From positions 23,340,934 to 23,404,933 of the forward strand of contig CM120645.1 in assembly GCA_051362555.1 (NCBI GenBank): 64,000 nt of DNA, written 5' to 3'. Numbering within the stretch: position 1 is the stretch's first letter; every line of letters starts with the position of its first letter. The translations under genes and the position numbers were made by a program. A model generated the notes under the pieces. The model had not been told where the DNA came from. It ran no database searches and saw only the letters and a program-made list of their open reading frames with translations. This stretch comes from Lingula anatina (lineage: Eukaryota; Animalia; Brachiopoda). This document shows positions 51,620 to 60,600 of this stretch, piece after piece.

Positions 51620-54600
51620 TTACATACACATTTCTTGCTGTTCATCTAAGTGCTTAGGCTCAAAGTTTGTCACTTCTTCATATATTAGTCCTGAAACAAA
51701 ATGGGATGGAAATACTTTATCTTTTTTTCTAAACCAGACTGACAAAACAGGACAATTCATATTGTGCAAAAGGGGAAGTTGTAGTATATCAACCAAAATA
51801 AATTTTCTTTGTTTTTTTTTTTTTTTTTTTTTTTTGCAAAAATTCTGTTCAACATGTTTACCTCTCACTGAAAATAATAATTATAACTGTCACTTGAAAA
51901 AGGACATTCCTTGGACAGCATATTTATAAACAACTTGAATTATCCTCAAGCAAAACAAAGGTCATCTCAGTCTACCAACCCCAAATGTTCCCCTTTCGGA
52001 ATTCTGTTACACCCTTCGTGCTATCCATAATGACGCTGATACCCAAAACAATGAAAATAATAAAAGTAAAAATATCCATTAAAAAAAAAATCAAATTCAT
52101 ACAGGAGTATTTGCTTACTTTTCCAGACTGGGATATCGTACTCCTTGTCCTCAAAGGACTGGTCGTAAGGCTCAGATTCTGGCTCATCAGAAGGGTCTGC
52201 ATATTGTTTGAGGTAAGGGTGGCCCAACGCCTGTTTGGCAGTATACCGAGTGTCTGCATCAAGGTCCAGCATCCTCTCCAGGAGGTCCACAGCTGGACAC
52301 AACAAAGTGACAGTCATAATCAATCCAGTTACATTATACTTAGATAATGAAAATATTAATCCTAATACTAGATCTTATGTTGAAACGGAAAGCACCACGT
52401 GACAGCACCATCAGTTCAACCAATGAAGGCCTTTATATAAGGTCAAAAAGCCGTGATCTCCATTTTAATGTAAGTAGAGTATTAGATTTTTCTTCATTAT
52501 TTTAGTTTAGGTAACAGTTCCAAGACAAGTCACCCACTGCATGCCATATACAACAATGTAATTATTGAGCTGGGAATCACTGCTAAACTTTTACCACTAA
52601 GTAGAAATTAATTAAATATATGTTATGTGCTAGAAATTTTAAACCAACTTGAGCAAAACATTTACAGACACGCTACATGTTAGAGGCTAAAACACCACAA
52701 GGCTGAGATTTGATTACCTAAGGGATTGGCTTGTAAGAAGCATTGTTTGAACTCTCTTTTTGGCGTAGTTGGTAGTGACTTTATATACCTCCGTGCCTGA
52801 AAAAACATCAACTCACAAATTAAAGCACAAATTTTACTTATGCAAAGCTTTCCTTCAAGTCAGAGGTCAACTACAGGTGCAAAATAAGAACTAAGACTTA
52901 AAGTTTATGTAGAAGAAGGTTATTTTTTCCTGGAGATTTTCTCTGAACTACAAGGAATCCCATATCCAAACCAGTTTTCGAGCTCAAAATTTTCTGGTTT
53001 CATGTCTCTCCTAACAAAGATAAAAACAGGTGAATTTCTTTCGAGATGGCAAAAATGTGAAATTTTGAATATGAAAACATTATTCAAAGAATGTCCAAGA
53101 AAAGATTTCCTTAGAATAAGAAGATCTACGAAGAAAATAAATGTCTAATTAAGAAAAGACATCCACTCACCTCGTCACTGGTTATCTTGGCCAGCAGACG
53201 GTCATCTGGTGTCCCCACTAAACTCATGATCCTGGTCAACTGGTCAATATCTGGACAGCAGTCAAGGAACTTAAACAACTTAGCCACGATTACTTAGATA
53301 AACTTTGTGTTCAAAAGCATATTTGCAAGTAGGGATAAGTGTAAGACTTGTCGTGAAAAGGGCCACAGATGTCTGAAGCACAGTTGGCTGTCCCAGCACA
53401 TCTCTGACAGCCTCATGCCTGGTTCATTAATCTGGTTTATCTGAGCACGAAAGTTGGACTGATTTCTGGTCTCAAAAGAATCAACTCTCGATCCAAGTTT
53501 TATCATGTCTGAACTGACCTTGACTCCAAAATGTCCTAAGCATAACTGATTACTATTCAATCAATCAAGAGTGAGAAAGCTGGTACAGTTAAGAAAGTTT
53601 GAATAGATAGAAGAAAGCTGGTACAGGTATTAGAAAGCTGGTACAGATACAAGAAAGCTGCAACAGGTATCAGAAGGCTGGAACAGGTAGTTGACAGCTG
53701 GTCTAGAAAGTAGAAAGCTGGTAAAGATGGAAGAAAGCCGATACAGATAGTAGGAAGCATGTGTCAGAAGCAACAATGAAACTACACAGCCTGCATTGAG
53801 GCAACATGCATGTGACCACATAGCTTTACATTACATCAAACAAAACAATGGCTGCCTTCACTCCTCTCTCTCTTTCTCCCTCCCTCTCTCTCTCTCTTGC
53901 AGGCATATCTACATAGCTGCACATAAACGACACAGACAAATCAACAACTAAATTAAAACAAGCCAAAAGATACGATCTGTGCCGGGGAAGAGTGTCTTGC
54001 CAGTCATGAGTTCAGCCATTATACAGCCAACAGACCAAATGTCAACTGAAAAACAAAAAGATAAAAGCAAATTACTCCCAGTTCTGTGGCCAGTGTGACA
54101 GAAAAACTTCCCCCCGAGACCCTAAGCTGGTGTTAACTTAGGCCGCATTCAGAACAGTGTACTTACTAGTCCGAGGGTCAAATATGGCTGACCCATTTGA
54201 ATACTTTTCCACGGGATATATATTCAGTGTCTATTAGCATATTAGATGGCAAGCTTTGTAGTGGGTTGCCATATTTGACCCTCGGACTAGTTAGTTCCCT
54301 GTTCTGAATGAGGCCTTAGAATGAAAGTCTGCCTTAAGGATTCTACAGAATGAGTTTCCATCATACCCTTAGTGTAAATTCCTTTTTTTTCTTTTTTTTT
54401 TGCAAACTGTTTCTGCCAATATGCTGCCAATTTGCAAGAAGAAATAATTTACTATGCAAATGAGGCACTGTCTTAAATATGAATGGATTTGAAGACTTCT
54501 TGCAAACTCGTAGCACACTTAAAATGCTCTTGCCAATTTGCAGGAATTTGTAGCAACATTTTTTTCTATTTAGTTTGCAGCATTTTTTTTTATCCTGGAA

Positions 54601-57600: not shown

Positions 57601-60600
57601 CCCCCCCCCCCCCATCTGATACCAAATAACCCTTGTTCCCTTATCAAAAAAACTTCATGAATATTCCACATATCATTATGATCCTTACGCTCACCTGAGC
57701 ATACTCCATCACCTGTACACATCTTCACCTTACCTGTGTACTCATAACATTCAGGTGTGCTGATATCTGACCTTTCACAGTTCCAGATCTTTATGTATAT
57801 CAAGTCTTACCTGTCTGGTTATAATGCATCCAGTTCAGCATAATCTCAGGAGCTCTGTACCACCTTGTAGCCACGTAACCCGTCATCTCATCATCTGCAT
57901 GTCGGGCCAGCCCAAAGTCTAAAATCTGCACACACAAATTTATATCTATAATATATATTTAAATATGCAATATAATATTGTCTATTTATGTTGAGAAGTG
58001 CTCTACCCTAGCTGGGGAGTGAAGTTATAAAACAAGATGTATAGTGAAGATATCAAATTTTAATGACTATTATACAGAATGGAAAAAGTGGTATCTTGAT
58101 ATGGGCATTTTTACAATCCTGGGCACTTTTCAGATTTTCCCACATATTGCTAATTAACAAATTACATACTTATGATCAAAGAATTCTTTTATCACTATGT
58201 TGGAGAATGGTGTAAGTGAAGATAAACACTGAAATTAGAAATCAAATATCACCACCGAGTCCAAAGTTATGCTAAAGCAAAGCCTGAAAAATGACCAAAA
58301 ATTTTTCCCGTTTCAGTCATATGAAATAAAAAGCAATCTGAAATAAATTAAAACAGTCTTTGACATTGCATTTTTTGGATTATAAAACACTCAGTAGTAT
58401 GGAGGAAGCAAAAAAGTTTAAATATTAACAGGAGAGAGGTGTATCCTAGAAAAAAAGTCTTTTTATGGCATGCTGGTATTTCCGTTAAACGATATGTCCA
58501 TTCCGAAACAAAAATAAATTACTTTCAGAAAATATATCATAAAACATACAGTATAATTAACCATCCTAATCATTATTTGGATGTATTGGTATTGTTTGTA
58601 TCAAATAATGAAATCTGCGCGATGATTCTGGAGCTTGACATGGAGTGCAAAATAACCCTACCGTGTTTTTCCGTTAAATTTGTCCATTCCAAAACATTGG
58701 GTTTTTCTTACATAAAAAGAACATGTTGACACCTAGCCTGTAACAATATATATTTCTCTAAAGCCCAGGACATGTGATATTTATTTTTATATAAGAAAAC
58801 CCCAGTGCACAGAAACCCATTTAACTGTGATCTTTTTTGAGATGCTTGTTAAAAATTGTCCATTCCGAAACAAATAAAAGTACCTTTACATTGCCAATAT
58901 TATAAATAGAGAGAATTCTGTCTTAAATGCTGTATGTTTCACTTGACATGAGCAAATTACTGTTAGAGCATCATGCATATGACATAAAAATAATAGAAGA
59001 ACATTTCTTCAATGGCATCTTTTTAAATTTCTATATATATCCTCAACAAAAAAATTCATTTTTGTGATTCAGCATCTTTTCTTTGGATCTACTAGAACTT
59101 CCATTGCATATTTTCCCAAAGTTCATGTATTTCAAAATTAAATTAACAATTAATTGAAGAGATTATATCAGTATAAATAGAAATAAAGGCAATTTGGATG
59201 CTTTGTATCGGAAAGGACATTTTTTAACACATTTTCTAAAACACTTGTTTACTCTTTGGTCTGCTCATCTATTTATTATTCATGAGGAAGAGGATGATGG
59301 GAAGCAAATCAAATTTATGTAGAATATAATTTTGAATAATATAGCTTACCTTACTTTAAATATTGCTTACTTATGATGTAAGTAAAAGTATTCGAAAATA
59401 GTTATGAGGCTACACATGTTAAAGTTGCGAGAGTCAGTTCACTGGCACGGTTTACAGAGGCGCTCGCAGGCAGGTTATAATTAACTTCCTGTGATTATTT
59501 ATAATATATACATACATCATATATATATATATATATATATCATTTAAGCAATTTCGTAAATGTTAAATAAATGTCCATTCCGAAACACAGGACATGCCTA
59601 AAAATATTTAAAAACATATTTAAAAATGTAATTACTAAATTTATACCTGACGTTGTCAAATAATATTTTATACAGCTATGAGCTGTAACAAAAGGAAGTA
59701 GAATAGGGTATAATGGAGTGTAGAACTCTCTATTTTATGTCATTATCAAATACTAATGGAGTAACATTTCAAAAAAGAATCAAAAACTATCCAAAATGAC
59801 CAATTAATGTAATAAAAACAGTTCAGTTTTAATTTAGTTAACTCATATTTTGTCCAATGGTTGCTTCACCTTGTAAACCAACATACTATGAGATCTTAAG
59901 GCAATTTCATAAATGTTAAATAAATGTCCATTCCGAAACAAGGACATGTCTAAAAGGACATATTTTTAAACATGTCTTTACTGTTGGTAAATCTGACATT
60001 GTCAAATAATATTTTATACAGCAATGAACTCTAACAAAAGAAACTGCAATAAGGTGTAATGGTGTAAAGAATACCTGGAATATATCTCAGAATCAATATT
60101 TAATAAAATAAAATTCCAGTAATGAATCACTAGTACAGAATAGACAAAACAAGCACAAAATGTAATAAAAAGACTTTATTTTAGTTCAGCTTGCACCTAT
60201 TTTGCCCCTGTTATTCAAAGACTTTACCTAAAACTTATAAACTCAAATACTACAATATATTAAAACAATATCATAAATGTTAAAAAAATGTCCTTTCCGA
60301 AACAGGGATGTTTCGGAAAGGACATTTATTTTAACATGACACTGCAATTAGCACACATGTCTGTGCAAAATAATATTTTACACAATCATGAAGCATAACA
60401 TAAAGAACTAATGCAAGGTAAAGTGAAGTACAGAAGTCCTCAGAATATCTCAGCATCAAAAACTTCATGAAGTCACATTTAATACTGAAACAGGAAAATT
60501 ACAAAATATCATTGATTCGTCAAATTTTGGATATTTTCATCCATTTTTTTGCAAATACATAAAAGAGCAATACTCTCTGATAAAACTAAGTGGTTTTCTG

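Follow-up and report, generated by a model that had tools for sequence, protein, structure and literature searches.

The p38 gene of the brachiopod Lingula anatina raises the question of how a gene with three tandem versions of one internal exon could place exactly one of them in each message, and whether all three versions are used. The gene lies in a 64,000-nt stretch of DNA (assembly GCA_051362555.1, contig CM120645.1, positions 23,340,934 to 23,404,933), referred to here as the window. Exons 1-3 fall outside the window, and exon numbers are working labels. Joined with the last copy of the repeated exon (C), the exons encode 259/259 residues of RefSeq protein P0001. The product has a Pkinase domain, exon 7 contains MTGYV (the TGY motif), p38 proteins are the closest relatives, and the best relatives of exon 11 among solved structures are p38-alpha. 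The RefSeq record holds a single isoform, which contains C.

The repeated exon, exon 8, corresponds to p38-alpha residues 205-227 and is present as copies A, B, and C on the minus strand (Table 1). These are tandem homologues with equal 72-nt phase-1 cores (A perhaps 99 nt in practice), pairwise nucleotide identities of 43-48/72, and separating introns of 1-1.4 kb. No fourth copy exists, the next-best 72-nt segment on either strand reaching only 37/72 (mean 18, sd 3.7), and a search of the Lingula p38 region found no second exon 9. One U2 donor (exon 7) and one U12 acceptor (exon 9) flank the three copies, which is the layout of JNK exons 6a/6b. An earlier note on this DNA had described such a layout, with U12 donors, U2-type acceptors at B and C, and a single clear U12 branch point before the next constitutive exon, and it is found as described. 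The coordinates and motifs given there are correct on the minus strand, from the three 72-nt cores and their U12 donors to the U2 donor of exon 7.

Table 1. Features of the Lingula p38 locus, with positions counted from the first letter of the window
Feature	Positions	Strand	Basis
p38 MAPK (MAPK14-like) gene, coding exons 4-12	51620..62997	-	RefSeq match, Pkinase domain
Exon 7, constitutive, activation loop with TGY, U2 donor GTAAGA	57811..57925	-	229 reads to C
Nearest in-frame AG (56670-56669) and 27-nt extension 5′ of core A	56642..56670	-	acceptor score 7.3
Exon 8 copy A core, open frame, 17/23 residues identical to C	56570..56641	-	sequence comparison
U12 donor of A, GTATCCTT	56562..56569	-	motif match
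Exon 8 copy B, open frame, 15/23 residues identical to C, polypyrimidine-AG acceptor	55438..55509	-	sequence, acceptor score 8.2
U12 donor of B, ATATCCTT	55430..55437	-	motif match
TGCATG twice, at 22 and 143 nt 3′ of B, candidate RBFOX sites	55290..55416	-	motif count
Second U12 branch-point-like motif TCCTTGAC, AC 13-14 nt later, between B and C	54905..54925	-	motif match
Exon 8 copy C, default exon, best acceptor (score 14.0)	53974..54045	-	229 + 229 junction reads, RefSeq protein
U12 donor of C, GTATCTTT; C-exon 9 junction ends GT-AG	53966..53973	-	motif match, reads
Sole U12 acceptor: branch point TTCCTTGAC, AG 11 nt further 3′	53251..53269	-	9/9 consensus match
Exon 9, constitutive, helix G, single copy, U2 donor	53171..53250	-	sequence, reads

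The splice sites divide between the two spliceosomes. RTATCYTT has 12 matches on both strands of the window, three of which are the donors of A, B, and C, those of A and B being perfect (8/8). Ahead of exon 9, TTCCTTRAC is matched at 9/9 positions with 11-nt spacing to the AG (consensus range 10-20 nt); exon 8 and other acceptors reach only 4-6/9. Introns A-B and B-C are hybrids of a U12 donor and a U2-type polypyrimidine-AG acceptor (U2 scores 8.2 and 14.0; branch point 5-6/9). The single clear U12 branch point needs one qualification, a similar motif at 54905-54925, possibly a decoy acceptor for B's AT donor and possibly chance. Motifs of this type number seven in the window, two strands together, and the bin containing this one has zero read depth in 4/4 RNA runs.

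Transcripts identify the copy in use. Four of nine raw-read runs (by species label) were used, roughly 6-25% of each, and these hold 229 reads joining exon 7 to C and 229 joining C to exon 9. Among the junctions listed, none involves A or B in 4/4 runs, and none skips from exon 7 to exon 9, a test to which the 229 reads give power. Junctions A-B, B-C, and A-C are likewise unlisted in the four runs, which is a weak test of exclusivity with near-zero power because A and B are so rare. On the sense strand, the bin of B holds 52, 66, 308, and 0 bases in the four runs, depths below the junction threshold, and both neighboring bins hold 0; either pre-mRNA or matches to repeats may account for these traces. 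In run X7, the 110 + 76 + 110 bases near A were not counted, being explained as well by unspliced or repeat-derived reads as by spliced ones. The junction check proposed in the earlier note thus returns 57811 joined to C and C joined to 53250, with no co-inclusion and nothing into or out of A or B listed in the four runs. Of the three mutually exclusive alternatives it envisaged, C is used and neither co-inclusion nor skipping is listed, but no listed junction involves A or B, and the core of A is not preceded by an AG, so that the three-way choice stands as a prediction.

An orthologue survey, also suggested beforehand, recovered multiple exon 8 copies elsewhere: L013 has three, all with AT donors facing one AC acceptor and a single exon 9, and L005/L037 has two with U12 donors of the AT-AC subtype, again with a single exon 9. 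Both are metagenome contigs (RNA evidence is from Lingula only), and their source animals are probably annelids; L013 is placed with annelids at a support of only 80, with the annelid Owenia outside that group, and its exon 11 stands at 79% against the best named relative. Annotated exon 8 is divergent in Lamellibrachia and Tubulanus. The U12 donor is intact in 8/8 exon 8 copies from Lingula, L013, and L005. The last copy has the highest acceptor score in 3/3 species (14.0, 16.3, and 12.1 vs 0.8-8.2), the default acceptors of L013 and L005 having belonged to the training set.

In the exon tree, the extra L013 and L005 copies form one clade (support 96/94), and synonymous sites between their default copies are saturated (pS 0.85), so the extra copies have persisted across species. 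Lingula A clusters with these extra copies (76/78). AU tests on the 48 columns of this tree reject none of the alternatives: a Lingula-only origin (p 0.37), a single clade of all five extra copies (p 0.50), and a separate annelid-like origin (p 0.35). The exon 8 cluster may thus be of independent or ancient origin, and of the independent three-way version that had been proposed, the three copies are confirmed, whereas independence competes with a shared origin.

Elsewhere in the family, exon 9 rather than exon 8 is duplicated, in p38 of fish, bivalves, insects, chelicerates, and crustaceans. These clusters reach three copies (L016, L052, L056; Artemia isoforms), and the known duplication of the following exon in vertebrate p38-alpha is seen in L029. 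The U12 donor sits at the same codon in 62 p38 loci from 26 groups, loci that were chosen by a pattern containing the donor. No same-species pair of named isoforms differing in the exon 8 core was found among 30 proteins from three clusters.

We favor, at a probability of roughly 0.7, the explanation that the exon preceding the conserved U12 intron of p38 was triplicated in tandem, with C as the default, B and possibly A likely serving as rare cell-type-specific alternatives, and spliceosome mismatch likely permitting exactly one copy per message. Introns A-B, B-C, and A-C (U12 donor, U2 acceptor) should be impossible to excise, as should the exon 7 to exon 9 skip (U2 donor, U12 acceptor). Blocking these errors matters because 72 nt preserves the reading frame, so decay could not clear them. 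The barrier is not absolute, since shared acceptors and U2-donor-to-U12-acceptor skipping occur (excerpts of PMC8329584 and PMC10853781). Its stronger polypyrimidine tract would let C win, as with JNK2 exon 6b; in JNK2 minigenes, the last copy, with the stronger tract, is the default (excerpt of PMC1874599).

Differences among the resulting isoforms would fall in helix F and in the loop leading to helix G (positions 213-228), adjoining the FxF/DEF docking pocket, and may therefore alter substrate preference. A splicing regulator, possibly RBFOX, might shift the choice to an upstream copy in a few cells. TGCATG, which we take to be the RBFOX motif, occurs six times in the cluster (expectation 1.15) and six times in 1282 nt downstream of the extra copies against four in 6313 nt of controls; it was spotted post hoc and ranks 13 of 2145 hexamers. 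None lies within 300 nt 3′ of A or of the first copy in L013. YCAY (Nova-type) motifs number 2-8 per 200 nt (mean 3.6) with no clear pattern.

Copies A and B would each be spliced atypically. A is the least secure: its core is preceded by CCCTG, and the TG at the boundary scores -14.1, so that A either needs the AG 27 nt upstream, which ranks tenth among the interval's 212 AG sites, or lost its own AG in this haplotype. Use of that upstream site would yield a predicted 99-nt exon with nine added residues before helix F. The last base of A is A, which predicts Asn, not His, at p38-alpha position 228. Joined to the shared AG acceptor, the donor of B would define an AT-AG intron, the most frequent non-canonical U12 subtype (PMC1557818 Table 2). 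The favored explanation requires such an intron for B.

Silence of both upstream copies, as formerly used relics beside a sole expressed C, with a layout that yields no isoforms, is unlikely. It would account for the listing of C junctions alone in four runs, for the missing AG of A, and for the weaker acceptor of B and its AT donor facing an AG. However, neither copy has a stop in its frame, each has a perfect U12 donor, and both retain invariant kinase residues. The three proteins are identical at 15-17 of 23 residues while synonymous sites are saturated (pS 0.73-1.02 vs pN 0.16-0.24; Fisher p 2e-4 to 2e-8), values that span the entire time since duplication, not the present day, and are to that extent compatible with relics. 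All three copies have thus long been under coding selection, and 0/20000 neutral simulations retained the observed identity without a stop, for A and for B alike. Among solved structures, the matches to B are p38-alpha 205-227 and, marginally better, CDK/GSK-like kinases; we interpret the latter match as B having drifted to a more generic CMGC pattern rather than as a sign of a foreign exon. Further against relics, B has sense-only partial coverage in 3/4 runs, two other species retain extra copies, and alternatives of JNK and TMEM87 are tissue-restricted, so that rarity in bulk RNA is expected (excerpt of PMC6717393).

A second possibility, which we regard as quite improbable, is that the copies are real alternatives chosen through conventional competition between splice sites, through RNA pairing, or by repressors, the U12 donors having simply been copied along. 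Exon duplication inevitably carries the ancestral U12 donor (present in 62/62 loci, by design of the pattern), the polypyrimidine tract sets the exon chosen in JNK2 (excerpt of PMC1874599), and U2/U12 incompatibility accounts for just 5/629 human clusters (excerpt of PMC5740500). Yet docking-selector pairing was not found, the sole long inverted repeat being a transposon-like element at 54137-54319, and the 1-1.4 kb between copies exceeds the range of steric exclusion. With the frame preserved, moreover, decay cannot act, and U12 donors have stayed intact in 8/8 copies of three species. That the upstream copies are decoys tuning p38 output, with B's AT donor pairing with the AC at 54905 or stalling to give unproductive RNA under minor-spliceosome control, is most improbable: the motif and AC do lie at U12 spacing 3′ of the only AT donor in Lingula, in mammals U6atac becomes more abundant on p38 activation (work cited in an excerpt of PMC6717393), and retention of the MAPK14 U12 intron reduces protein (excerpt of PMC8883539), but the site is unread in all four runs, such motifs recur in the window, and decoys would have no need of conserved kinase residues.

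Under tandem triplication with spliceosome mismatch, the exclusion mechanism is already known from JNK, and the p38 exon 8 triplet is a new variant of it. Mismatch exclusion is counted as rare; this locus and the related loci suggest that it recurs at one MAPK intron across animals, on either side and with up to three copies. Current annotation gives Lingula one p38 isoform, and the extra copies are predicted alternatives. Lingula and the related loci allow a natural comparison of the ways in which newly arisen alternative exons escape in-frame co-inclusion, and they bear on whether AT and GT donors can compete for a single U12 acceptor and on the diversification of docking specificity where an animal has few p38 genes. 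The Lingula genome is rich in minor introns (excerpt of PMC10639083). A literature search of openly accessible papers found none on p38 exon 8 duplication or Lingula p38 splicing; the PMC5740500 appendix (five human cases) and the PMC10639083 intron tables may bear on novelty.

More speculatively, and doubtful as a whole, the Asn228 (DEF-pocket) alternative of exon 8 might be an ancient brachiopod/annelid p38 isoform that RBFOX turns on in a small number of cell types. In a wider view, the one conserved U12 intron of stress MAPKs might be a recurrent isoform generator: duplication of either flanking exon would give a cassette exclusive from birth, reused to vary one substrate-docking surface through exon 8 (JNK, Lingula, and annelid-like p38) or exon 9 (vertebrate, arthropod, and bivalve p38).

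The closest known system is exons 6a/6b of vertebrate JNK (MAPK8/9/10), where the duplicated exon is likewise the one that precedes the conserved MAPK U12 intron (excerpts of PMC1874599 and PMC8329584). In these accounts, as in Lingula, each copy has a U12 donor and (in Lingula, B and C) a U2 acceptor, a single U12 acceptor lies downstream, and the last copy is the default with the strongest polypyrimidine tract. Lingula differs in the gene (p38), the phylum (a brachiopod), the three copies, the convergence of GT and AT donors on one AG, the first copy without a core AG, and upstream copies that are predicted alternatives only. The CSBP1/CSBP2 isoforms of p38-alpha (MAPK14; excerpt of PMC1431701) share the gene family, the U12 intron, and the C-lobe surface near helix G. 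Together with the other exon 9 clusters, they are the mirror image, the exon after the U12 intron being duplicated with U12-like acceptors and U2 donors, whereas in Lingula exon 9 is single and exon 8 is present in three copies. TMEM87A/B exons 11/11a also form a 72-nt pair with interlocked U2/U12 introns and zero co-inclusion reads, but in an unrelated gene with two copies, both confirmed by RT-PCR (excerpt of PMC6717393). L013 and L005/L037 resemble Lingula in having multiple exon 8 copies with a U12 donor each, a single exon 9, weak upstream acceptors, extra copies that end in A (Asn228), and TGCATG downstream; they differ in being AT-AC throughout and in retaining the AG in every copy.

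The exon-8 layout of the Lingula anatina p38 gene is real and old and is apparently conserved, and its extra copies are likely functional, with copy A being the least secure. The host gene lies on the minus strand of the window. In a search of solved structures, exon 11 best matches p38-alpha, and it agrees at 98% with the RefSeq MAPK14-like protein P0001 of Lingula anatina; window exons 4-12 joined with copy C reproduce P0001 at 259/259 residues. The exon numbering used here is a working convention. A passage of PMC10639083 describes Lingula as enriched in minor introns.

As the earlier note claimed, three homologous 72-nt cores carry U12 donors: GTATCCTT (A), ATATCCTT (B), and GTATCTTT (C), with coordinates and donor motifs confirmed. 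Pairwise identity is 43-48/72 nt (next-best window, 37), and further copies of exons 4, 6, 7, 8, 9, or 10 are absent from the window. The U2-type donor proposed for the upstream constitutive exon holds for exon 7. The exon 9 acceptor has a perfect U12 branch point with an AG 11 nt further on. Two features went unmentioned in the earlier note. One is a second branch-point-like motif, with AC, between B and C. The other is a TG at the core boundary of A; an in-frame AG first occurs 27 nt farther upstream and, if used, would add nine residues.

Coordinates of features in the window
Feature	Position	Strand
Exon 8 copy A, 72-nt phase-1 core	56641-56570	minus
Exon 8 copy B, 72-nt phase-1 core	55509-55438	minus
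Exon 8 copy C, 72-nt phase-1 core	54045-53974	minus
Second branch-point-like motif with AC	54925-54905	minus
MITE-like element, 52-nt terminal inverted repeats	54137-54319	
Open frame, 402 codons	44754-45962	minus
Tandem paralogous units	1626-8076, 13749-20291, 27756-32123	minus

Elsewhere in the window, the MITE-like element between B and C attracts, on both strands, reads that come from other loci, and the 402-codon frame downstream of p38 has no Pfam match. At least three tandem units are spaced ~12 kb apart; in two of them a TIR domain frame precedes TRAF-type zinc fingers, a frame of long tandem repeats, and an unassigned, helical-looking frame, and the third contains TRAF zinc fingers. 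Should the frames prove to be exons of a single gene, the units would represent a TIR + TRAF-finger immune adaptor family.

A, B, and C are old and were coding through most of their history, which does not by itself establish use today. Comparisons among them give pS of 0.73-1.02 and pN of 0.16-0.24 (Fisher p 2e-4 to 2e-8). When C was mutated neutrally to the observed third-position divergence (20000 trials each for A and B), 0/20000 trials kept A's 17/23 residues stop-free, and likewise 0/20000 for B's 15/23. The core aligns with p38-alpha residues 205-227; in that numbering, A differs from C at 216, 217, 218, 220, 221, 226, and 228, and B at 213, 214, 216, 217, 220, 221, 224, and 226. Position 226 is Thr in 202/257 proteins; Tyr and Leu, the residues found there in A and B, occur in none of them. 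Altered substrate docking between isoforms is plausible.

C is the dominant exon in RNA, sampled from four of nine Lingula runs (6-25 in 100 of each run's reads) with junctions listed at ≥3 reads from 2 starts. Of the junctions proposed as a check, those of C appear on both sides: 103, 95, 24, and 7 reads per run for exon 7-C, and 96, 78, 30, and 25 for C-exon 9, which has GT-AG ends. No A or B junction and no exon 7-exon 9 skip was listed in the four runs, nor were A-B, B-C, or A-C junctions, whose absence had been predicted. Each unseen junction is bounded at ~3% pooled, assuming its reads are ≥90% like the window, a bound tempered by the many mapped reads only 90-95% like it. Coverage in the B bin is exclusively sense-strand, at 52, 66, 308, and 0 bases per run, and both adjoining bins are at zero. 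The first two values fall below a ~142-letter read and are compatible with single reads spliced at B; overall, the coverage may reflect such reads, repeat matches, or pre-mRNA. Coverage near A comes from one run and is equivocal. The runs (X1, X2, X4, and X7) share one species label, yet show many synonymous differences from the window and each other, with most 90-99% alike, a pattern that would fit strong polymorphism or cryptic species.

The locus scan, whose pattern of exon end plus U12 donor favours the usual His228 copy, yielded 62 loci in 26 groups (18 loci in one); two of these groups look like JNK. Extra exon-8 copies occur in 2/20 groups with exon 7 visible. The triplet sought among orthologues was found in metagenome contig L013, where every copy has an AG and ATATCCTT and the one exon 9 has a U12 branch point and AC; contig L005 has two copies. 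L013 and L037 (grouped with L005) are placed among annelids with weak support (80). L005 has lost the exon 6-7 intron (40-201), which L013 and Lingula retain. The subtype of the p38 U12 intron has switched: it is AT-AC in L003, L005, L013, L037, and L050 and GT-AG in the remaining 57 loci. Both donor types, AT and GT, occur within the one p38 gene of Lingula. U12 donors are intact in the L002 and L018 groups, and exon 9 branch points there are degenerate (e.g., GTTAAC), which suggests a shifted branch consensus in those animals. Annotated p38 proteins P0005 (Lamellibrachia) and P0210 (Tubulanus) have unusually divergent exon-8 segments, which may be alternative copies chosen by the gene model.

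Two or three exon-9 copies occur in 8/21 groups with exon 9 visible; the donors are GT throughout, and most have U12-like branch points. Triplets are seen in L016, L052, and L056, and the L029 pair matches two segments of a fish p38 prediction. Exon 9, not exon 8, varies between named isoforms of Mya, Dreissena, Thrips, Mercenaria, Tachypleus, Limulus, Artemia, Parasteatoda, Neodiprion, and Harpegnathos; Artemia RefSeq isoforms likewise have three exon-9 forms. The ten groups with exons 7-10 fully visible (six single-copy, three with extra exon 9, one with extra exon 8, none with both) are too few for this split to mean anything.

The independent origin proposed earlier is not established. The L013 and L005 extra copies form a starred clade in the exon tree (96/94) and have therefore outlasted synonymous-site saturation between the two species. 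Copy A of Lingula groups with them at 76/78, a placement that long branches could produce, and AU tests reject none of the exon-copy histories. Lingula A and the L013/L005 extra copies (4/4) end in an A that gives Asn228, found in 0/257 proteins compared (His in 242/257); this takes just one base change and carries little weight as evidence.

The splice-site anatomy and the dominance of C are directly observed. By analogy with JNK, hybrid introns between copies would escape excision, and the exon 7 U2 donor would be unable to pair with the exon 9 U12 acceptor; passages of PMC1874599 and PMC8329584 give the JNK basis for both. Together, we infer, these two blocks would leave one copy chosen. 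To be used, B would need an intron with AT-AG ends, which are the most frequent among non-canonical U12 introns (20/66; PMC1557818, Table 2). The U2/U12 barrier leaks in places, according to parts of PMC8329584 and PMC10853781. RNA pairing able to stand in for it was not found in the region, and because a 72-nt exon preserves frame, decay is unable to clear splicing errors. RBFOX binds TGCATG, and sites downstream promote inclusion. The exon-8 cluster has six TGCATG versus 1.15 expected, and downstream sequence has six in 1282 nt for extra copies versus four in the 6313 nt taken from 22 controls with a single copy, an enrichment spotted post hoc with 2/5 extra copies lacking any.

No account of p38 exon-8 duplication was found in the literature searched, supplements aside. 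U2/U12 exclusion itself is already described in sections of papers on JNK (PMC1874599, PMC8329584) and TMEM87 (PMC6717393), and an excerpt of PMC5740500 puts it at 5/629 human clusters, a rarity. In JNK2, the polypyrimidine tract sets exon 6b as the default, as a portion of PMC1874599 reports. The p38 genes resemble this arrangement, in that the strongest acceptor belongs to the last copy in all three species (Lingula, L013, and L005).
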